A stretch of 64,000 nt of DNA from the IMG/VR virus record IMGVR_UViG_3300044826_000112, one strand, 5' to 3'. Of the stretch, positions 14,057-55,934 are shown one piece after another (position 1 is the first letter of the stretch; each line of letters begins with the position of its first letter). Both the position numbers and the translations under genes were made by a program. This stretch comes from a virus. The notes under the pieces are model-generated. The model searched no databases, had not been told where the DNA came from, and was given only the letters and a program-made list of their open reading frames with translations.

Positions 14057-15418
14057 ATGGCAGTCGTCAAAAAGCTCAAGCCAATTGATATGACTCTTGA
14101 GCAACTATATGCTCATGAGAAATTCACACCTACTATCCGTAAAGCAATTCTCCTCAAGGAGGACTTCAGCAAGATCCAAGTGGACTATTGCGACAAGGTC
14201 TGTACTGTACCCAGTCGTATGAAGTGCCCGGACAACGTGTATCTGCAAACGTTCGATGAGCCGGTAGATATCCTGATTCTCCAAGAGCAAGTCCCTCTTG
14301 ATGAGAAGTGGAAAACCGGTCAGCAGGTCAACCGTATTCACCGCAAGATCATGGGCTACATGATGAACCAGGTGAATGACACCAACTTGTCTGTGGCATA
14401 CCTAGATCTCGTTAAGTGTCCGAACAAGTTCAACCCTGTGAAGGGTAAGCACAAGAATGCTACTGCTACGCAGATGGCGTCCTGTGCACCTTATCTTTAC
14501 GAGCAAATCCGGCAGGCTCGTCCAAAGGTAATCGTCAGTACCTCATCTGTGGCAACGAAGGTGCTGGGCTTGAAGAAGTCCAACTACAACAACCGTGGAG
14601 AGTTCCATCTGACAGACATCCCAGGCCTGGACTACCAGGTACCTGTGGTTCTGACTCTACACGCTTCTGTTTTAGTCATGATCCGGCAGAACGCCTCAGG
14701 CAAGATGTACGGTCCTGACTTCTTCTCAGTCATCCGTCGCGACTTCCAGAAGGCATGCGATCTGGCCAACCAGAAGTATGCAGCTGGTGATGTCCGCCTA
14801 GCTATTCAGCAGCTGAAAGCCAGGGGTGCAATCCAGTACTGCAAGAACATGGATGACGTTAAGAAGTACTATAACGAAATCATGGCCTTGCCTGAGAACG
14901 CAGTGTTCTCCTGGGATACGGAAACGACATCTCTCGACCCATGGTCAGACGATGCTCGACTCCTCTGCTCGCAGTTCGGATGGCGCCGGCCAGATGGCTC
15001 TCTCATTGGGGTATCCTTCCCGCTTTGGCACAAGGACAACCCGATGAATCCAGATATCATCTGGGACTATGTAGTGGACATCTTGATGCGGCCTAACCCG
15101 AAGGTTGGCCACAACGTCAAGTTTGATATCGTGTTCACTGAGGTGACCACAGGTATCCGTCCGGTCAACGTCTGCTTCGATACTCTGCTATGTGCTCACA
15201 GCATCAACAGTGGTATTCAGCAGAACTATAGCCTGAAGACTGTCATCTGGGATTGGACTCCGGAGACTGGCCTGGGCGGCTATGAAGACCTTCTGGATGA
15301 AAGTCTGACCGAGGAGCAGGTTGCCCTCATCAAGGCGGAGCTCAAGAAGGAACGTGACGCCAAGAAGGCGTTGGGATTAACCGACTCCGACGACGAAGAA
15401 GAGGAGTCAGAAGAATGA
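14057..15418 (+). CDS. DNA polymerase A, N-terminal part: UDG-like domain + ExoI/ExoII of the 3'-5' exonuclease
   Basis: LVKCP...CAPYLYEQI...RPKVIV...VLTLH (family-4 UDG-like); WDTET (ExoI); GHNVKFD (ExoII); DTLL..H...SLK; ends in an acidic tail. Confidence 0.85.
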   Translation: MAVVKKLKPIDMTLEQLYAHEKFTPTIRKAILLKEDFSKIQVDYCDKVCTVPSRMKCPDNVYLQTFDEPVDILILQEQVPLDEKWKTGQQVNRIHRKIMGYMMNQVNDTNLSVAYLDLVKCPNKFNPVKGKHKNATATQMASCAPYLYEQIRQARPKVIVSTSSVATKVLGLKKSNYNNRGEFHLTDIPGLDYQVPVVLTLHASVLVMIRQNASGKMYGPDFFSVIRRDFQKACDLANQKYAAGDVRLAIQQLKARGAIQYCKNMDDVKKYYNEIMALPENAVFSWDTETTSLDPWSDDARLLCSQFGWRRPDGSLIGVSFPLWHKDNPMNPDIIWDYVVDILMRPNPKVGHNVKFDIVFTEVTTGIRPVNVCFDTLLCAHSINSGIQQNYSLKTVIWDWTPETGLGGYEDLLDESLTEEQVALIKAELKKERDAKKALGLTDSDDEEEESEE

Positions 15419-20680: not shown

Positions 20681-22243
20681 GTGAGAAAACATAAAGGGTT
20701 CACGTATGAGTGGTACGACTACGACGCTCTGATGACGTATGCGGCTATCGATAACTACGTGACAAGTGCCATTCTGGCGGCCATGTGGCCAACGCTCAAT
20801 GAGCGACGAGACTACACTTTCTTTAAGCGTGGTCAGGCTCAAGTCGTGAAGACTCCGTCTATTCGTAATGAACAGTTGGAGGTCAAAAAGCTGGCGTTAG
20901 ACTTCGTGTGCGATATGGAAGTGGCAGGTATGGCTTACGACATCCCTGCTAACCGACGTATGCATCAAGCCATGTTGGAAGACTTGGCGATTACTGAGGA
21001 TCAGATCTTCACCGCCATCGGTAAGCGGATTGATCTGAACTCCGGTGCTGCTCTGGGTGATTTTCTTTACCGTGAACGCGGTTTTGACGTCCCTCTGCAG
21101 ACGAAGAGTGGTGGCGATTCAACATCTGGTGATGCTCTGAAGGCTCTGCACAAGATCCACGAGCATGACTGGCTGAAGGACATCATCAAGCGTAACGACG
21201 TGCACGCTATGCATGGCAACTTCATCAAGACCTATGTAGAGGACTGGGTGAAGAGCGACGGTCGGATCCATCCTCAGTACAACCTGTTCGGCACCAGTTC
21301 GCACCGTATCAGCTCCAGTGAGCCGAACCTGCTGAACCTGCCGCGTGGCTATTACGGCTACAACATCCGGGAACTCTACATCACTGTCCCGCCGATGGCC
21401 TTCCTGACCTTCGACTTCTCCTCGTGTGAAGTGAAGATCTTGGCGGCCCTCTGTAAGGATGAGGCAATGATGGATGCCTGTGCGAAGGGTTGGGACTTCC
21501 ACTCCTTCACCGCATCGATGATTGCAGGCGTACCGTACGAGGACTTCGTTAAGATTGCTAAGGATGAAGACCATCCGGAGCACAAGAAGTACAAGGGAAT
21601 CCGTCAGGATGCCAAGGCGACCACCTTCGGTCTGCTGTATGGCTCCACTGTAAACGGTATCGCCATGAACCTTGGCAAGTCCCTGGAAGAGACCCAGAAG
21701 ATCGTGGATACCTACTTCCGCTTGTTCCCGAAGGTAAAAGACTTCATCGAAGACTGCCACAAGATGGCTCTGGCCAACCAGTTCGTCTTCTCGCCATTCG
21801 GTCAGAGAAAGATGGAGTACGGTGCTCAGGACGTCTTCCGTGGCACTGCCGTGTACAACGCTGCTCTGCGGAACAGCCAGAACGTATCCATCCAAGGTCC
21901 GGCTTCTACTTTAGGTCTGATTGTGTTCGCCAAGCTGAACGAAGAGCTCAAGAAGATTGGTGGCCGGGCAATCTGTACGGTATACGACTCGGTGGAAATC
22001 GAAGTCCCGATGAATCGCATGGCAGAAGCCATCGAGCTCGGCTTCTACATGATGGATGACTGGCCTGTCGAGAACTTCGACTGGTTGGACTTCAAGATCG
22101 GTGCGGATGCTGAAATCGGTTGGGATTGGGGTAATGTACACGGCGTCAAACGTGGCATCACCCAAGAGAAGTGTGAAGAAATCCTCTCTGCAGCCAATGA
22201 AGAGAAGTATGTGACCTCCCGTCTGGTACTGGCGGCGGCGTAA
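20681..22243 (+). CDS. polA: DNA polymerase A, C-terminal part: ExoIII + polymerase domain
   Basis: YAAID (ExoIII); DGRIHP, RISSSEPNL.NLPR; motif A DFSSCEVKILA; motif B R..AKATTFGLLYG; motif C VYDS; own AGGAGG RBS with GTG start. Confidence 0.92.
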   Translation: MRKHKGFTYEWYDYDALMTYAAIDNYVTSAILAAMWPTLNERRDYTFFKRGQAQVVKTPSIRNEQLEVKKLALDFVCDMEVAGMAYDIPANRRMHQAMLEDLAITEDQIFTAIGKRIDLNSGAALGDFLYRERGFDVPLQTKSGGDSTSGDALKALHKIHEHDWLKDIIKRNDVHAMHGNFIKTYVEDWVKSDGRIHPQYNLFGTSSHRISSSEPNLLNLPRGYYGYNIRELYITVPPMAFLTFDFSSCEVKILAALCKDEAMMDACAKGWDFHSFTASMIAGVPYEDFVKIAKDEDHPEHKKYKGIRQDAKATTFGLLYGSTVNGIAMNLGKSLEETQKIVDTYFRLFPKVKDFIEDCHKMALANQFVFSPFGQRKMEYGAQDVFRGTAVYNAALRNSQNVSIQGPASTLGLIVFAKLNEELKKIGGRAICTVYDSVEIEVPMNRMAEAIELGFYMMDDWPVENFDWLDFKIGADAEIGWDWGNVHGVKRGITQEKCEEILSAANEEKYVTSRLVLAAA

Positions 22244-29172: not shown

Positions 29173-29932
29173 TCTTCACTCTGATCATTGGAGAGGTACT
29201 GGTAACATCCTTGATCTTTTACATTTTGATAAGGATAAGGTCGAGGCAGTATTCGTTGCAGGGGATGCTGGGGAGTGGATCGGCGGTATGGGCGAAGACA
29301 ATCCTATGGTTGTCCGTGTGTTCGAACCTTTGAACCGCCTGGGAGTCCCAGTGTTCAGTGTAAGTGGTAACCACGAGTACTACTACACAGATCTCCTCCA
29401 GGTAGACAAAGAGATGGAGGAAGTAAGCCATCTGTTTGAGAACTGGCATCATCTGCAAGGTGGCCAAAGCCGGCTGCTGGGTGATGAATACGCTGTCATC
29501 GGGGCCACTTTGTGGACTCCATTGGCAGGTATGGGCAACCCTATCCGCAGTAAGCGTGGCATGCGGGATATGAATGACCGCAAGTACATCAAGATTGGCG
29601 GGAAGAAGTTCGACTACAAGCAGGTAATTACCCTCCACGAAGCCCATTTGAAGGGCATCCAGGAGGCTTTGGAACGCCACAAGGACCGCAAGTGCATCAT
29701 TATGACGCACCACGCACCGTCCTATAAGCGTATCCCTAAGCGTTACATGTTCGATGCTTGCAACATCGCCTACGCTTCCGAGGTAGCTAACCAGATTCAG
29801 GCCCACGCCTGGATCTCAGGGCATATTCACGAAAGCTTTTACATGGAGATCAACAACACCCTCCATATCTCAAACCCACTTGGCTACCCTGGTGAGGGCC
29901 TGCCGGTATTTGAAGGAACTTACACGTTATGA
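29150..29932 (+). CDS. Metallophosphoesterase
   Basis: SDLH, AGD, GNHEYY, THHAP, GHIH. Confidence 0.9.
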   Translation: MEAAVLSDLHSDHWRGTGNILDLLHFDKDKVEAVFVAGDAGEWIGGMGEDNPMVVRVFEPLNRLGVPVFSVSGNHEYYYTDLLQVDKEMEEVSHLFENWHHLQGGQSRLLGDEYAVIGATLWTPLAGMGNPIRSKRGMRDMNDRKYIKIGGKKFDYKQVITLHEAHLKGIQEALERHKDRKCIIMTHHAPSYKRIPKRYMFDACNIAYASEVANQIQAHAWISGHIHESFYMEINNTLHISNPLGYPGEGLPVFEGTYTL

Positions 29933-31074
29933 AACTCAAAAAGATCGATGTGCTAGACAAGCCGTATCAGATCTACGCAGAAGTGCTGGAATCTGGTGCA
30001 ATTGACCAGTTTGTCGACGTAATGGGTCAGGCAGACGTCCGCCAGGGTGCCTTGATGGCGGATGCTCATTCTGGCTACGTACTGCCGATCGGCGGCGTAG
30101 TGGCTACTGAGGGGACCATCTACCCGTCTTTCGTAGGTTATGACATCGGCTGCGGCGTATGTGCAGTCAAGATGAACATCAAACGGGAACAGATCTGGGA
30201 TAAGGCAGCCGAAATTCGCGACGCCATCTACAAGCAGATCCCCGTCGGCTTTAACAAGAACCCTCTGGAGCGTCATGCTCGTGTCCGTAAGCTTCTCAAG
30301 GAGCTGAAAGGCAATCCTACCAAGGTCATCACTGAAGACCTGTGGGGCGAAGCCGTTCTGGGCTGCGGCACCCTAGGTGGCGGTAACCACTTCATCGAGA
30401 TCGGTTATGACGAGAACGATGACATCTGGGTAATCGTACACTCCGGCTCTCGTAGCCTGGGCTTTGGCGTAGGCGAGCACTACATGAAGCTGGCTGCCGG
30501 TCGCGATCGCAAGTTCGAAGGTCTCTACAGCCTGCATGAGCACTCTGATGTCGGTAAAGACTACATCAACGATCTGGATTACTGCCTGGCATACGCCCTG
30601 CTGTCCCGCAAGATCATGGTTAGCCATACCTGCAACATCCTCAAGGACTTCGTTGAGGGTGCCGAGGCGATTGCCGACACCTGGATTAACCGCAACCACA
30701 ATCATGCGGAGAAGAAGGGTGATGTGTGGATCCACCGTAAGGGTGCGACCCATGCTGAACTCGGTATGATGGGCGTTATCCCTGGTAACATGCGGGATGG
30801 CTGCTTCATTACCCGTGGTAAAGGTAATCCGGCGTCCCTGTACTCCAGCTCTCACGGTGCCGGGCGCGTAATGTCCCGGGCGAAAGCCAAGGAAGCAGTC
30901 AATCTGGAGCAGCTGGCGGAGATGATGAAAGATGTACCTGGTGCGTCCGTACGTCCCGGCGTCATCGACGAGGCCCCGGCTGCGTACAAGAACATCTTCG
31001 AAGTCATGGAGCTTCAGAAGGACCTCCTGGAAGTGGTTCACCACGTCAAACCTATTGTCAACGTGAAGGGCTAA
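29929..31074 (+). CDS. rtcB: RNA 3'-phosphate/5'-OH ligase RtcB
   Basis: MADAH.G..LPIGGV, VGYDIGCG, GTLGGGNHFIE, HSGSR, HNH, HRKGAT, PGNM, SSHGAGR, DEAP.AYK. Confidence 0.95.
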   Translation: MKLKKIDVLDKPYQIYAEVLESGAIDQFVDVMGQADVRQGALMADAHSGYVLPIGGVVATEGTIYPSFVGYDIGCGVCAVKMNIKREQIWDKAAEIRDAIYKQIPVGFNKNPLERHARVRKLLKELKGNPTKVITEDLWGEAVLGCGTLGGGNHFIEIGYDENDDIWVIVHSGSRSLGFGVGEHYMKLAAGRDRKFEGLYSLHEHSDVGKDYINDLDYCLAYALLSRKIMVSHTCNILKDFVEGAEAIADTWINRNHNHAEKKGDVWIHRKGATHAELGMMGVIPGNMRDGCFITRGKGNPASLYSSSHGAGRVMSRAKAKEAVNLEQLAEMMKDVPGASVRPGVIDEAPAAYKNIFEVMELQKDLLEVVHHVKPIVNVKG

Positions 31075-34685: not shown

Positions 34686-34980
34686 TACATATGTATGGTG
34701 CAGGTCTGGATATACGTATGTACACTCAGATGAATCCACATATGTACATTCACGAATCACGATATCATGATTAGCCAAATTGGCTGGATCTGCGTCATGG
34801 TATCGTGATTCAGACCTGTTCAACATTTTTGCATATGCAGGTATAACTACAGTGTAGAGACGTCTACGCCGGTCACGACTCCGGCGACCGGCTTCTTGTT
34901 TTTCCCAATCGGCGGATGGTGATACCACCATTCGCCAAATCAGTAGTTTCGTGAATGGTGATAAGACCATTCGCCAAAGG
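34686..34980 (+). promoter_or_regulatory. Structured intergenic control region (palindromes, long hairpin, promoter, terminator-like hairpin, duplicated hairpins)
   Basis: ACATATGT-type palindromes; 17-bp stem; GGTATAACT at 34840; repeated ATGGTGATA..ACCATTCGCCAAA. Confidence 0.6.
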
Positions 34981-34987
34981 AGAGATC

Positions 34988-35884
34988 ATGATCAACCCTA
35001 TCAAAGTATATCGTCAAGATGTGACTGTCGTTAACTTCTACGGCCAAGAGATTGTGACCGTAATGCTGGAAGAGCTTGGCACTCCGGCGATCTTCGCCAA
35101 GCCTCTTGTTGAGAACCTCGGTATTGACTGGAAGAACCAGTATACCAAACTCATGGAATCTCCGCGGTTCCAAGCTATCGTCGTCAGTGTGAAAGCCCCG
35201 GATGATGACCGTGTACGTGAGCATCTGGTACTGCCCATCCGTACACTGAACGCCTTCCTGTTCAGCATCAACCCGATGAAAGTGCCGGAAGACAAGTTCA
35301 TGCAGATCGAAGGCGAAGACATCTCTGTGCGTGACAACCTGATCAAGTACCAGTCTGAGTGCACCGTAGCTCTGCACGACTACTGGATGCATGGCATGGC
35401 GATCAACACCCGCGTCAATCCGTCTGACATCCGCACTGAACGCAAGCTGGGCCCGGTAACCTACAGCCGGGGTCGCATTGAGCGTGTCCTACCGAAGTTC
35501 ATGGACTACGCGGCCAGCATCGGTCAGCCGCTTGAGCGTGGCATCCTGATGCAGGGCCTGTGCGTAGCCATCGCCGAGTATGTAGGTGCCATTGCCTACA
35601 ACCCGGAAAACATGACCGTTGTACGTCTGGAGCCTCTGGGCGCCCAAGGCATGCAGCGTGTCGAGTCCAAGCTGTCCGGTCGCGATCAGTGGCTGGTAGC
35701 GATCATCGAGAACGTGTTCTGCAACGCAATGACCGAAGCCATGCACCAGCAGGCAGATGTCACGCAGTTCCTGACCACGCTCGACGTGATGATCCTGGAC
35801 ACTGTGACCAACCTGGGTCACCACTTCGTAACCTGCAGCTCTACCTTCAACAAGGGCAACGGGTTTCTTTCTGCAATGGTTTAA
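34988..35884 (+). CDS. Phage antirepressor N-terminal domain (P22 Ant-like) protein
   Basis: NFYG..., KPLVENLGIDWKNQYTKL, FLFSINPMKV, LIKYQSEC..ALHDYW. Confidence 0.8.
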   Translation: MINPIKVYRQDVTVVNFYGQEIVTVMLEELGTPAIFAKPLVENLGIDWKNQYTKLMESPRFQAIVVSVKAPDDDRVREHLVLPIRTLNAFLFSINPMKVPEDKFMQIEGEDISVRDNLIKYQSECTVALHDYWMHGMAINTRVNPSDIRTERKLGPVTYSRGRIERVLPKFMDYAASIGQPLERGILMQGLCVAIAEYVGAIAYNPENMTVVRLEPLGAQGMQRVESKLSGRDQWLVAIIENVFCNAMTEAMHQQADVTQFLTTLDVMILDTVTNLGHHFVTCSSTFNKGNGFLSAMV

Positions 35885-35942: not shown

Positions 35943-36788
35943 ATGACTACTGAATACATCCGCCACAGCAATGTACGTGCCGTTAACTTTTACGGGGATA
36001 TCCTCCCGACTGTTGACTTTATCAACCCGGATGGGCAGCGTGAGATTGGCGTAATCGGTGCCGCTTTGGCCCGTGGCCTGGGTCTGGAGTGGAACCGCCA
36101 GCTGCAGAAGCTGACTTCCGGTGACCCTCGCTTCATGGCCTTCACCGTTAAGGTGCAGACTGAGAAGCAAGTGCGTGACATGGCGGTCATCCCGCTGCGT
36201 TTCCTAAACGCCTACCTGTTCTCCATCAACCCGATGAAGGTTGCGGAAGACCAGATGGTTGAGCTGTCGAACGGCGAGAAGGTTTCTGTACGGGAGAAAC
36301 TGATCCGCTACCAGTCTGAGTGCACCGTTGCACTGCATGACTACTGGATGCACGGTACCGCACTGAACCTGCGTCCGGTTCCGCATGACGTTACCTATCC
36401 GTTCCGTGATGCCCGCATCTCCAGCCGTCCGCAGCTGGTAGAAGCCGTGAAGAAGTACGCCAAGTTCCACAAAGCGTGCCTGCGTCTGGATATCGACGAT
36501 AGCGACCTGGCCGAGAGCCTGTATCAGCCGATGCTGAGCATGATCCACCAGGTGAACTGCGTTGCTCTGGAACATGAAGAAGCTGCCCTGTCCGGCCGGG
36601 ATGCAGCTATCGTCGCGTTCTCTGAACTGACCGTAGCGACCATCCTGAACCATCTGGTTGCACACGACATCCTTGAAGAGGGTGACATCGTGGGCTTCTG
36701 TGAAGGTCACCTGGTCAAACACCTGCAGGAAGTGGGTGACAAGTTCCTGGTTATGGGTGATACCCTGCCGGCGGACCTGACCAAGTAA
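35943..36788 (+). CDS. Phage antirepressor N-terminal domain protein (paralogue)
   Basis: NFYG, GLGLEWNRQLQKL, YLFSINPMKV, LIRYQSECTVALHDYWMHG (nearly identical block to 34988). Confidence 0.8.
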   Translation: MTTEYIRHSNVRAVNFYGDILPTVDFINPDGQREIGVIGAALARGLGLEWNRQLQKLTSGDPRFMAFTVKVQTEKQVRDMAVIPLRFLNAYLFSINPMKVAEDQMVELSNGEKVSVREKLIRYQSECTVALHDYWMHGTALNLRPVPHDVTYPFRDARISSRPQLVEAVKKYAKFHKACLRLDIDDSDLAESLYQPMLSMIHQVNCVALEHEEAALSGRDAAIVAFSELTVATILNHLVAHDILEEGDIVGFCEGHLVKHLQEVGDKFLVMGDTLPADLTK

Positions 36789-41712: not shown

Positions 41713-42588
41713 ATGATCGCGAAAATCACCTCTACCCCGGATTACCGTCCTGACCTGCGTGGCTGTATGGATCTGCGGGATTTCTTCGAGCAAAACACCA
41801 TGACTGGTCGTTTCCGTGACTGGATCCGCCGTCGTGTAGTTCCGGCTTTCGAGCATACCGCTGGTGTTCTCTACCAGTACAACAAGTATGATGGCTGCCC
41901 GGAAGAACTGGCTGGCTCCGTACGTGAACTGAACTACTACGTTCGCCCAGAGGGCATCCCGACCGTAGTCACCCTGGCTGGTCTGGATATGCCTGCTGCT
42001 GCAGCACCTGTTGAAGCTCCCGGCCAACCTGAGGCCGCTGGTGGCGTCAGTGGTGAGAGCATGCTGTCTCTTATCCTGGCTGCTAACAAAGAGCTGGCTG
42101 AGCGGATGGCGTCTCTGGAATCCCTTCTGGTTACGAAGGGAGACCGCAACATCTCTGAGAATGCCCCCGGTCTGCCGGCTCGCAAAGCTGAAGTAGTCGA
42201 CACTGGTAACTCATTCGAGTTCCTGCTGAAGACTCACGGTTTCTCGAACAACCACATGTACGAGTACCGTCGTAATGGCGTGAAGCGTAGCAAGCTGTAC
42301 AACATCTGGCGTGCTACCGTGGACAAGACCTTCCCGAAGAAGCCTGCGTGGCTCGACGTCACCAAGCCGTTCGAAGTGCATCTGCAGTTCGGCTACCTGG
42401 AAGGGTTCGACGTTCACAACTTCGTGAAGAGCTCGATCGATGCGTTGGCCACCGTCTGGGGCTTCAACGACAAGATCGTTCAGAAGGTCTCAGTGGAGGG
42501 TGCTTACGTAGCACCGACAGCGGCACTAGATGCTAGCTTCCATCTGAAATCGAAGAACGCCTTCATCAGATACGTAATCAAGCAGTAA
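41713..42588 (+). CDS. AntA-like DNA-binding domain fused to a RusA-like nuclease domain
   Basis: DLRDFF...FRDWIRRRV; DVHNFVKSSIDAL....FND. Confidence 0.5.
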   Translation: MIAKITSTPDYRPDLRGCMDLRDFFEQNTMTGRFRDWIRRRVVPAFEHTAGVLYQYNKYDGCPEELAGSVRELNYYVRPEGIPTVVTLAGLDMPAAAAPVEAPGQPEAAGGVSGESMLSLILAANKELAERMASLESLLVTKGDRNISENAPGLPARKAEVVDTGNSFEFLLKTHGFSNNHMYEYRRNGVKRSKLYNIWRATVDKTFPKKPAWLDVTKPFEVHLQFGYLEGFDVHNFVKSSIDALATVWGFNDKIVQKVSVEGAYVAPTAALDASFHLKSKNAFIRYVIKQ

Positions 42589-42674
42589 GCCAAAAGGCCC
42601 TCCTCGGAGGGCCTTCTTCATGGTATAAGTACTTCGTGGTGAGTGGGTGACGTGGAGGTTGGAGGAAAAACTTA

Positions 42675-43052
42675 ATGAGCGTCTTTGAATACCTGCAGAA
42701 ATACTATGAGTACCGCTGGAGCTCTCCCGAGTTCAAGTATGAAATCACTTTGATCCTGGGGTTGGTCTTCTTGAATAGTGCTATCTTGGCATTGATCATG
42801 AAGGTCAGACGGAATCTATCTGACGCCCCTATAGTCTTCGTTCCTATCATGCTGATCTTCATCTTCCTGTCTATGCCTATGGGCTTCGATATGTTCGTCG
42901 GCGTGCTGGCTATCTGTGCATCGTTCGTCTCGATCACCGTATATGAGGCTCAGATGGCGGCAATTAGACGTATCGAAGAGGAGATGTTTATCCATGATCT
43001 AAAGGAAATCAGCTTAATGATGTGGAAAAAGCCTCTCTGGAGGTGTGATTAA
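42675..43052 (+). CDS. Membrane protein
   Basis: Three hydrophobic helices; own promoter. Confidence 0.6.
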   Translation: MSVFEYLQKYYEYRWSSPEFKYEITLILGLVFLNSAILALIMKVRRNLSDAPIVFVPIMLIFIFLSMPMGFDMFVGVLAICASFVSITVYEAQMAAIRRIEEEMFIHDLKEISLMMWKKPLWRCD

Positions 43053-43064
43053 AGAAAAGGGGTG

Positions 43065-43092
43065 TTGACACCCTTTTTTAGTATGCTATAGT
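43065..43092 (+). promoter_or_regulatory. sigma70 promoter of the tRNA/ncRNA operon
   Basis: TTGACA...TG-C-TATAGT. Confidence 0.65.
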
Positions 43093-43100
43093 GGCATCCT

Positions 43101-43275
43101 AGTTTCTCAAGTGGGTGGGCATATGATCCTCATCATGGATGTACAATACGGTGAAACGAATTGTGCGGCCGGATTACTGCAATAGGGATTGACAACCCTA
43201 CTGAGATTGTGAGAAGCTTGCCTGGTAAACATCGGAAACCCGATTGGGTTGTCGCTGTTGATCAGTTAGCACGAA
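43101..43275 (+). ncRNA. Candidate structured leader RNA
   Basis: AGTTTCTCA/TGAGAAGCT closing stem with internal hairpins; no ORF. Confidence 0.4.
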
Positions 43276-43277
43276 AC

Positions 43278-43354
43278 GGAGCTGTAGTTTAGATGGTGAA
43301 AATGCCTGCCTGTCACGCAGGAGACCGCGGGTTCGAGCCCCGTCAGTTCCGCCA
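43278..43354 (+). tRNA. tRNA-Asp(GTC)
   Basis: Cloverleaf, CCA end. Confidence 0.93.
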
Positions 43355-43782
43355 AAATCTTAAGATCAGTACCCAATCTCCCGCCAGCTAACGGGAGATT
43401 AGGATGACCGAGAAACCCTTCGTTGCGGGGTAAGGTTTTACAGTGGCACAGCCAAGCCTTCCTGTCTCTAATCCTGAGATGGTAAGAATCCCTGAGGTAG
43501 GGGACTGTAAGATCCTAGGACACTCATCATATTGGATGATACTGAGCACAAACTCGTTGAGGGTATGCAAATTCCCTCTCTGGCCTTCGGGTCAGGTGGC
43601 CGAATAAAAGCCTAGCATGGGCGTTAAGGCAATCTACTGGGGATGACCTCCCCTTGTCAGGCACCGTGAGGTGTGAGATCCGCCAGAGGGAATCTGGAGT
43701 AGAGATACGAGGTAGCAATACATGCACCTAGGTCGTCGGTAGCACAGGAATCCGACTCCTTTGGGTGCTGATCTTAAGGTTT
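43355..43782 (+). ncRNA. Large (~430 nt) structured ncRNA of unrecognised family
   Basis: 22-bp terminal stem (2 G.U pairs), many internal hairpins, located between two tRNAs, no sense ORF. Confidence 0.75.
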
Positions 43783-43794
43783 TGAAAGTTTCAT

Positions 43795-43871
43795 CTGTCC
43801 GTAGCGCAGTCTGGTAGCGTGCTCGATTTGGATTCGAGGGGTCGAAGGTTCAAATCCTTCCGGGCAGACCA
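43795..43871 (+). tRNA. tRNA-Pro(TGG)
   Basis: Cloverleaf, CCA. Confidence 0.92.
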
Positions 43872-43878
43872 ATTTAAT

Positions 43879-44070
43879 GTCCCATATGCACGGCTAGTCT
43901 CAAATGCTCTTCCATCCACGTGGGTTGAGTCAGTAATGGTAAAAGGCGAGATAGGCTTGGAGTGCAGGTGAAAGGCAGAAGGGCCTACTAGTAAGCTAGA
44001 CTACGTGGATTAGCTGAAGACAGGAAGATACGTTGAGTAGTCAAAGGTTCGACTCCTAAGTGGGACGCCA
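43879..44070 (+). ncRNA. 192-nt tRNA-like RNA
   Basis: GTCCCAT/GTGGGAC acceptor + G-CCA; AGG-TTCGACT-CCT T-loop; large internal domain. Confidence 0.7.
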
Positions 44071-44077
44071 ATTTGAT

Positions 44078-44153
44078 CGATGTGTAGCTTAACAGGTAGA
44101 GCATCTCCTTCATACGGAGCAGGTTGTAGGTTCAAGTCCTACCTCATCGACCA
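44078..44153 (+). tRNA. tRNA-Met(CAT) (elongator Met or Ile2 not resolved)
   Basis: Cloverleaf, CCA. Confidence 0.85.
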
Positions 44154-44160
44154 GAACAGT

Positions 44161-44237
44161 TGGGATATCGCCTAGTTGGCCTAAGGCATCGGACTTTGAC
44201 TCCGATATCGTTGGTTCGAATCCAACTATCCCTGCCA
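44161..44237 (+). tRNA. tRNA-Gln(TTG)
   Basis: Cloverleaf, CCA. Confidence 0.92.
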
Positions 44238-44244
44238 GATTACT

Positions 44245-44320
44245 GGGGAAATAGCACAATTGGCAGTGCACCTGCTTTGCAAGCAGACGGTTGTGGGTTC
44301 GAATCCCATTTTCTCCACCA
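44245..44320 (+). tRNA. tRNA-Ala(TGC)
   Basis: Cloverleaf, G3.U70, CCA. Confidence 0.92.
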
Positions 44321-44326
44321 AACAAT

Positions 44327-44409
44327 GCGGATGTGATGGAATGGCAGACATGCTACGCTTAGAACGTAGTGCCTAGTGCGTGTGAGTTCGAGTCTCACCA
44401 TCCGTACCA
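44327..44409 (+). tRNA. tRNA-Leu(TAG)
   Basis: Cloverleaf with variable arm, CCA. Confidence 0.92.
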
Positions 44410-44542
44410 CATTTGGTCCCGGGAGGGATAGCCCCGATAGGCGAAGACGAGAGGACGGATCCTCTTGCACCAAACCAATCCTTAAGGCCTCCTTTGGTAT
44501 AAGTCTTGTAGAGAAGACTTATGGCTTAGGAGGCCTTGTCGT

Positions 44543-44959
44543 ATGTGCTATTCCAAAGAACTCATTGAGTACTGGAGTCAACATCTCGAGGCCTACTTCT
44601 TCAACGAAGAGGACTTGGTAGTCTATCAGGTAATCGAAGGGTTGGAGTCAGCCTTCCTATCAGAGGTCACGGTACTCGGCTACTTGTTGCCAAGGTTGAT
44701 GATGTTGAATGCCGACCAGAGCGACTATCAATCCATAGTCGTGGTCACCAGCGTAGCTTCGAGCCTAGCTATGTCGATCTTGATAGGCATGAATCCAGTA
44801 CAAGCACTATCCGATACTCTGACTGGAATGTCTCTGGCTATGCCGAGGGATTACTTAGATCAGGTAGTTGCAGATAACCAAGATATGATCAACCAATTGA
44901 CTCGCCGGTTGATTTCTATCCGTCAAAACAATCCCCTTATTCTTGGAGGTGACCAGTGA
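44543..44959 (+). CDS. Hypothetical protein
   Basis: GGTATAAG promoter, AGGAGG RBS. Confidence 0.6.
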   Translation: MCYSKELIEYWSQHLEAYFFNEEDLVVYQVIEGLESAFLSEVTVLGYLLPRLMMLNADQSDYQSIVVVTSVASSLAMSILIGMNPVQALSDTLTGMSLAMPRDYLDQVVADNQDMINQLTRRLISIRQNNPLILGGDQ

Positions 44960-55838: not shown

Positions 55839-55934
55839 GGAAGAGTCATCCGAAATTGGTATCGGTCCAGTCTTGAAAACTGGTCATCGGGCTAGTACCC
55901 CGTTGTGTGAGTTCGAGTCTCACGTCTTCCGCCA
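55839..55934 (+). tRNA. tRNA-Ser(TGA)
   Basis: Cloverleaf, long variable arm, CCA. Confidence 0.9.

Follow-up and report, generated by a model that had tools for sequence, protein, structure and literature searches.

Genomic context of the element

The window, the whole stretch of phage DNA analysed here (64 kb; G+C 51%), encodes a split family-A DNA polymerase, a primase, a nicotinamide phosphoribosyltransferase and an RtcB RNA ligase (29929-31074; Pfam PF01139, 289 bits), together with 23 tRNA genes that lie without exception on the + strand. Its closest named phages are Salmonella phage Arash, with a polymerase amino-acid identity of 62%, and the Vibrio phages D69, D181 and D148. The polymerase is divided between two genes about 5 kb apart (14057-15418 and 20681-22243), both of which match PHROG 17, at profile positions 481-782 and 795-1254, and the second of which is split again in Arash. 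Two neighbouring paralogues (34955-35884 and 35943-36788) carry a P22 antirepressor N-terminal domain (PF10547).

Within a run of tRNA genes, a structured RNA of 428 nt separates tRNA-Asp from tRNA-Pro, abutting the former (gap of 0 nt) and ending 12 nt before the latter. The tRNA calls on its two sides agree with the siting given in a preliminary description made from the sequence alone. Other tRNA pairs in the window are spaced by 1-8 nt without any spacer element, and five more tRNAs lie between the tRNA-Pro side of the element and the next ORF. The flanking features are:

43065-43092, + strand: sigma-70-type promoter-like site (TTGACA, 16 nt, TATAGT, TG before the -10 box; 11 of 12 matches)
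43278-43354, + strand: tRNA-Asp(GTC) with encoded CCA; the structured RNA starts at the next base
43355-43782, + strand: whole structured RNA, 428 nt, between tRNA-Asp and tRNA-Pro
43795-43871, + strand: tRNA-Pro(TGG), 12 nt 3' of the structured RNA

Judged from its sequence, the promoter-like site would drive the tRNA operon. A GC hairpin with a T-run (43060-43080), terminating the upstream gene, overlaps its -35 box, so that TTGACA lies in the hairpin loop.

Fold and closing stem

The element folds on the + strand with a minimum free energy of -167.4 kcal/mol (z = -4.75), and none of 100 shuffled sequences was as stable; the minus strand gave a weaker value (-149.5 kcal/mol, z = -3.84). An inverted-repeat search across 42500-44600 returned 43353-43376 / 43761-43784 as the longest repeat (24 nt, 92% complementary), in agreement with the RNA pairing and with the stem that had been described as closing the element, here 20-22 bp long. 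The two non-Watson-Crick positions reported for this stem are U.G pairs in the + strand RNA (columns 5/431 and 17/419), and since the same positions would be A.C mismatches on the minus strand, they fix the strand as +. The parts of the fold, all on the + strand, are:

43355-43374, + strand: closing stem P1, 5' strand; pairs with 43763-43782; 20 bp in all five sequences compared, 22-24 bp possible in the window
43376-43399, + strand: variable-stem hairpin whose loop contains an invariant AGCUA; covariation in 6 of 8 pairs (helix 2)
43401-43404, + strand: AGGA, partner UCCU at 43757-43760; helix 3, invariant in five sequences
43406-43437, + strand: outer P3-like hairpin GACC-GAGAA-ACCC...GGGGU-AA-GGUU; its 3' side GCGGGGUAAGGU is equal to the Rfam manA consensus gcggggUAAgGu
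43438-43510, + strand: outer P4-like domain, a 7-bp stem around three hairpins; 4 of 7 pairs covary in helix 6 and one in helix 9
43511-43519, + strand: 5' strand of the long-range helix GAUCCUAGG/CCUAGGUC; partner 43727-43734; encloses the inner core; 3 compensatory pairs (helix 10)
43553-43711, + strand: inner domain, closed by CUCGU/ACGAG; helices invariant or with one-sided changes only
43559-43578, + strand: GCAA-tetraloop hairpin of the inner domain
43579-43596, + strand: UUCG hairpin of the inner domain
43599-43630, + strand: inner P3, GAAUAA...UAAGG, in the inner domain
43633-43703, + strand: inner P4, a three-hairpin domain, in the inner domain
43735-43756, + strand: P6 hairpin GUCGG-UAGCACAGGAAUC-CGAC, the best-conserved manA feature; one C-G to U-A compensatory pair
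43763-43782, + strand: closing stem P1, 3' strand; supported by covariation and the inverted-repeat search

Conservation and covariation among relatives

Relatives were traced through homologues of two neighbouring proteins in a large protein collection, which pointed to contigs of this phage group in metagenome assemblies; four of the contigs (L076, L077 (= L078), L079 and L090) carry the element at the same site between tRNA-Asp and tRNA-Pro. The window and these relatives, which belong to one phage group and are 88-95% alike, were combined in a five-sequence alignment (A3), whose consensus fold comprises 137 pairs in 22 helices with standard pairs in 98.1% of cells. Changes on both sides of a pair were found in 16 pairs, compared with 1-3 when the 3' partners were slid by 1-3 columns, and 0 of 500 shuffles reached the observed values. 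These compensatory pairs are distributed over P1 (one), the first hairpin (six), the stem 43438-44/43504-10 (four), the hairpin 43489-43503 (one), the long-range helix 43511-19/43727-34 (three; CCUAGG/CCUAGG to CUCGGG/CCCGAG) and the last hairpin, 43735-56 (one). In P1 an A-U to C-G replacement is accompanied by two one-sided changes that retain pairing. All helices other than these six, including AGGA/UCCU and most inner helices, are invariant in A3 or vary on one side only. The element is a conserved + strand RNA fold with covariation in six helices.

Identity among the relatives amounts to 92-100% in the 3' domain and 84-95% in the 5' domain, against 66-97% in neighbouring protein genes; the RNA is thus kept about as tightly as the tRNAs. 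The relatives differ by 1-nt indels within the element, and across the five sequences no reading frame is kept, by which a coding potential of the element was ruled out. Fold, relatives and covariation together bear out the large ornate non-coding RNA that had been proposed for the + strand, and show it to be conserved; the reported lack of a sense ORF is likewise upheld, and the covariation suggested as a check was obtained.

Seven internal helices had been listed in the preliminary description, and six of them are part of the consensus fold. Compensatory changes among the relatives support the AATCTCCCG/CGGGAGATT hairpin, TTACAGT/ACTGTAA, TCCCT/AGGGGA and GTCGG/CCGAC, while the CTGGCC-TTCG-GGTCAG hairpin shows one-sided changes only and the GGGG/CCCC hairpin does not vary at all. 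The seventh, ATTCCCTCT..CTGGC with GCCAGAGGGAAT, is complementary in the window and is not upheld in the relatives: these read CTCCCGGACC for CTCTCTGGCC, which breaks CTGGC/GCCAG and keeps the local UUCG hairpin, leaving the seventh helix unsupported.

Searches beyond these contigs traced the element no further. A blastn comparison with 50,697 phage records returned tRNAs only or nothing, nhmmer found nothing in the Arash tRNA region, and a search of IMG/VR loci with the two neighbouring proteins yielded no relatives. A motif pattern for the 5' domain had 0 matches in IMG/VR; its three matches in JGI metagenomes lacked similarity and were discarded as chance. A covariance model of the 5' domain (R1) gave no match beyond the phage group, whether in Arash, in Vibrio phage D69 or in the 69 loci of cyanophages. 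Arash has a gap before its tRNA-Pro that folds only moderately (z = -2.6) and bears no relation to the element.

The 3' half resembles manA RNA

At its gathering thresholds Rfam lists only tRNAs in the window, and no RNase P, tmRNA or intron family gave a match, consistent with the signatures that the preliminary description had found lacking. Its suggestion that the RNA belongs to no known family has to be revised, and the Rfam search it recommended is accordingly clean only above the gathering score: below it lies a significant match to manA (RF01745), present in all four relatives too and reciprocal.

43580-43761, + strand: stretch matched by positions 1-192 of the Rfam manA (RF01745) model, 42.3 bits

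The match covers the full model at a score below the gathering score of 55.2, with E = 1e-9 in a local search and 1.6e-7 in a search of the whole 64 kb with both strands and all families. The relatives match in the same place with 35-41 bits. Retained in the alignment are the 5' hairpin, P3 with its GAAUAA (43602-43607) and UAAGG (43626-43630) internal-loop strands, P4 as a stem around three hairpins (43633-43703) and P6 with a 13-nt loop; missing from it are the closing stem GGGAG/CUCCC and the greater part of P5. P6, with its conserved UA..ACAG.AAUC loop, alone scores 14.2 bits against a model of canonical manA (R3), and it is the only part of the element that R3 detects.

As a reciprocal test, a model built from the element's 3' domain (R2) was run against canonical cyanophage loci, where it finds the manA position with 12-24 bits (E 8e-5 to 0.3); it did not match any of seven decoy loci carrying the search pattern by chance. 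Because the canonical loci had been chosen by a pattern drawn from the shared motifs, this test is only partly independent. In two of the pattern loci, L021 and L049, no manA appeared at E 0.1; the pattern there is a chance occurrence, and both were then used as decoys. The manA-like pattern also occurred at six loci in GTDB genomes, and one of the five searched further, on a Flavobacteriales MAG contig, is canonical manA. RF01745 had no credible match in the whole records of Arash and Vibrio phage D69.

At a sub-threshold level, these comparisons indicate that the 3' half of the element is homologous to manA. Judged by sequence and fold, the element is then best regarded not as a new class but as a large manA-family variant, uncatalogued until now, in a lineage far from the marine cyanophages. 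It shares with manA a phage-borne location, the P3 internal loop GAAUAA...UAAGG, a P4 around three hairpins, the UA..ACAG.AAUC loop of P6, a 5' sequence that reads by eye as variable hairpin, purine-rich closing strand and UGA in succession, and a position that is often flush with tRNA genes. It differs in its length (428 nt compared with about 195 nt), in a score below the gathering score and in an added 20-bp outer clamp; on the nested reading set out below, the closing stem would be shortened to AGGA/UCCU and P5 replaced by a covarying long-range helix around a second P3/P4 set and the GCAA and UUCG hairpins. Its host is an Arash-like phage with 51% G+C, whereas manA hosts are low-GC marine cyanophages. 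For 16 years manA has been catalogued as an orphan riboswitch candidate of these cyanophages; the present locus adds a covariation-supported relative, twice as large, in a quite different lineage (Arash-like, 51% G+C).

A possible nested layout of two cores

The order of parts in the 5' half was compared by eye with an alignment of canonical manA (A6) and is the same: the hairpin 43376-99, AGGA-UGA, a P3-like hairpin and the domain 43438-43510, continued by the helix 43511-19/43727-34 at the place of P5, by P6 and by the UCCU that pairs with AGGA. The hairpin 43376-43399 stands where canonical manA has its 5' hairpin (P1), and AGGA-UGA-CC-GAGAA with GCGGGGUAAGGU mirrors the canonical GGGAG-UGA-CU-GAAUAA with GCUGGUUAAGGU. 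Read in this way, the 5' half holds a variant copy of the P3 internal loop (GAGAA...UAAGG, 43410-43436) and a second P4-type stem with three hairpins (43438-43510) closed by four covarying pairs. In the outer layout, the invariant AGGA/UCCU (43401-04 with 43757-60) occupies the position of the manA closing stem and is proposed, from its sequence and place, as the counterpart of GGGAG/CUCCC. The covarying helix 43511-19/43727-34 lies at the position of P5, and a sequence profile of canonical manA places its 3' strand on the 3' strand of canonical P5. In the alignment to this profile it is the outer P3 and not the inner that lies collinear with P5 and P6, although weakly (E 0.26).

In this arrangement the inner P3/P4 set, which is the one aligned by Rfam, would lie inside an expanded P5 arm. 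Covariance-model searches of the 5' half fell short of significance: R2 matched 43399-43527 with 2.0 bits (E 0.09), and Rfam manA had no match there at E up to 10. With these tests below significance, an internal duplication was not accepted as a result, and we give the nested layout about an even chance. On the nested reading, the placing of a whole extra core inside one arm of a manA scaffold would be of interest for RNA assembly design.

Siting at tRNA genes and proposed processing

A sequence scan found no promoter or terminator within or beside the element. With five tRNAs before the next ORF, this suggests that the element is part of the tRNA precursor and is freed by tRNA maturation, so that release through processing of the flanking tRNAs, put forward in the preliminary description, is the natural reading.

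The same siting recurs in canonical manA. Among 69 canonical loci from IMG/VR, 10 have a same-strand tRNA within 0-7 nt of the Rfam boundary, four of them upstream and six downstream (L017, L022, L031, L032, L048, L053, L057, L066, L071 and L072; 168-188 bits). This argues for a processed stand-alone RNA rather than a gene-leader switch and makes the 5' UTR, cis-regulatory character of manA doubtful; no mention of tRNA adjacency was found in the papers on manA that were consulted. The location of catalogued manA in 5' UTRs does not apply to the element, which lies between tRNA-Asp and tRNA-Pro. The locus makes a clear genomic case for manA-class RNAs being independent products of tRNA operons and not gene leaders, and the canonical manA boundaries that are flush with tRNA boundaries lend it further support.

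Comparable RNAs exist in phage T4, where species 1 and 2 (rnaC and rnaD) are non-tRNA RNAs that are co-transcribed with the phage tRNAs and released by the tRNA-processing machinery. These stable RNAs resemble the element in lying within a phage tRNA gene cluster; they are much smaller and unrelated to it in sequence.

Proposed explanation and alternatives

We propose that the element is probably a stand-alone, trans-acting structured RNA of an Arash-like phage of about 180 kb, and an enlarged and rearranged relative of manA. It would consist of one manA scaffold (5' hairpin, AGGA/UCCU closing stem, P3, three-hairpin P4, P5 and P6), its P5 arm expanded around a second P3/P4 copy and a 20-bp clamp helix added outside. 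Transcription would proceed from the promoter at 43065-43092 within the tRNA precursor, and excision would follow from tRNA maturation, by 3' processing of tRNA-Asp and by RNase P at tRNA-Pro. The RNase P cut at the 5' end of tRNA-Pro would leave a 12-nt tail on the element; RNase III may also cut within P1, a helix of two turns, which would afterwards shield both ends from exonucleases. Self-assembly into RNA-only oligomers through loop contacts may occur, an idea that draws solely on the analogy with canonical manA in vitro; candidate contact loops are AGCUA, the GCAA and GUGA tetraloops, the CCU and GGGAA loops and the P6 loop.

That the element is instead an independent new class of large phage RNA, with a likeness to manA that is convergent or confined to a few motifs (the GAAUAA/UAAGG hairpin and the P6 loop), seems to us unlikely. 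Such a class would fit the score of 42.3 bits against a cut-off of 55.2 with closing stem and P5 unmatched, the detection of P6 only by the canonical model, and a 5' domain that matches nothing in Rfam, Arash, Vibrio phage D69 or the 69 cyanophage loci. It sits badly with a match that spans the full RF01745 model (E 1.6e-7) in every relative, that is reciprocal while decoy loci fail, and that is accompanied by helices and motifs in manA order, including the 13-nt P6 loop. We give hardly any credence to a remnant or cargo of a mobile element (an intron, a retron-type RNA, a homing-endonuclease target, for example). Mosaicism of the tRNA region, in which a tRNA-like insert of 206 nt and an ORF of endonuclease V type are variably present, would favour it, yet the element itself stands at the same site in all five sequences without presence/absence variation, matches no intron or ribozyme family in Rfam, and has neither an associated protein gene nor a target-site duplication.

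Two further explanations were considered. As a cis-acting riboswitch or leader the element would control read-through to the downstream tRNAs and genes, in keeping with the original proposal of manA as a 5' UTR riboswitch candidate (Weinberg et al. 2010, PMC2864571) and with a fold complex enough for a ligand pocket. A tRNA on each side, five more tRNAs before the next ORF, the lack of a terminator or sequestered ribosome-binding site in or after the element, the 20-bp clamp that joins its ends, and canonical manA RNAs flush with tRNAs on either side all speak against this; with no expression platform and tRNAs on both sides, a riboswitch role is very unlikely here. The element could also be a mere processing spacer, in which P1 is an RNase III site parting tRNA-Asp from tRNA-Pro and the interior has no function of its own. 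P1 is indeed a near-perfect two-turn helix flanking the insert, comparable to the stems that bracket rRNAs in their precursors. The interior, however, is conserved like the tRNAs and above neighbouring genes, it contains covarying helices and invariant loops, and other tRNA pairs in the window make do with 1-8 nt and no spacer, so that we rate a spacer slightly lower again than a riboswitch.

Possible assembly and comparison with known large RNAs

Canonical manA RNAs are reported to form RNA-only assemblies in vitro, resolved by cryo-EM as a 60-mer, a decamer and an octamer and held together by kissing loops and a GNRA loop-receptor contact; the study offers no biological role (Ren et al. 2026, preprint 10.64898/2026.07.01.735769). 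In our alignment A6 the invariant loops GUGGUG and UUACCA of canonical manA are mutually complementary. The corresponding loops of the element are an invariant CCU and GGGAA, and GCAA and GUGA tetraloops are present as well; the AGCUA loop is invariant and partly palindromic on a freely varying stem. No conserved loop-loop complementarity of more than 4 nt was found in the element.

The preliminary description had compared the element with GOLLD and ROOL, large structured RNAs of phages and prophages near tRNA islands that form RNA-only cages in vitro (bioRxiv 10.1101/2024.12.08.627333). The comparison carries over as far as siting goes, the element likewise being a large structured phage RNA in a tRNA island. 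It extends no further: the element is smaller and of other architecture, without a match in sequence or structure, and the Rfam models of GOLLD and ROOL had no match in the window, either at the gathering score or with E values up to 0.05.

A more far-reaching proposal, which we consider decidedly unlikely as it stands, is that the element is a subunit of a closed oligomer or RNA-only cage, made of two nested manA cores and produced in step with the tRNAs, within a phage RNA toolkit that includes the RtcB ligase, and that it might serve, for instance, to hold or shield tRNAs or RNA-repair factors. If this were true, manA-class RNAs would be a general structural RNA of phages, borne in tRNA operons well beyond the marine cyanophages. 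Relatives in the phage group infect culturable enteric and Vibrio hosts, and expression, processing and assembly are therefore directly testable with an isolate.

Other features of the tRNA region

The tRNA region is a mosaic. Two pieces of it, a tRNA-like insert of 206 nt and an ORF of endonuclease V type, are found in some relatives and lacking in others. The insert (43872-44077) lies in the interval between tRNA-Pro and tRNA-Met and has an acceptor-like stem (GTCCCAT...ATGGGAC), a GGTTCGACTCC T-arm and CCA, with about 130 nt in place of the D and anticodon arms and a fold z-score of only -0.7; ARAGORN made no call for it with introns allowed. The window, L077 and L090 have this insert; L076 and L079, where tRNA-Pro and tRNA-Met are 7 nt apart, do not. 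The ORF, of 159 aa and the endonuclease V family (PF04493), lies between the promoter and tRNA-Asp in L077 (3992-4471), L079 (3337-3816) and L090 (4017-4496), and is missing from the window (site 43176-43181) and from L076.

Directly 3' of tRNA-Lys(TTT), 55839-55930 give a sub-threshold match to tRNA-Sec (RF01852; 41 bits compared with 47, E 9.5e-5) and no ARAGORN call; this may be a long-arm tRNA or a tRNA-like RNA. Finally, a hairpin at 44484-44537, in the interval from tRNA-Leu to the ORF at 44543, has 24-nt arms that are 83% complementary around a 6-nt loop. An AGGAGG ribosome-binding site lies in the 3' arm of this hairpin, which may serve in processing or in translational control.
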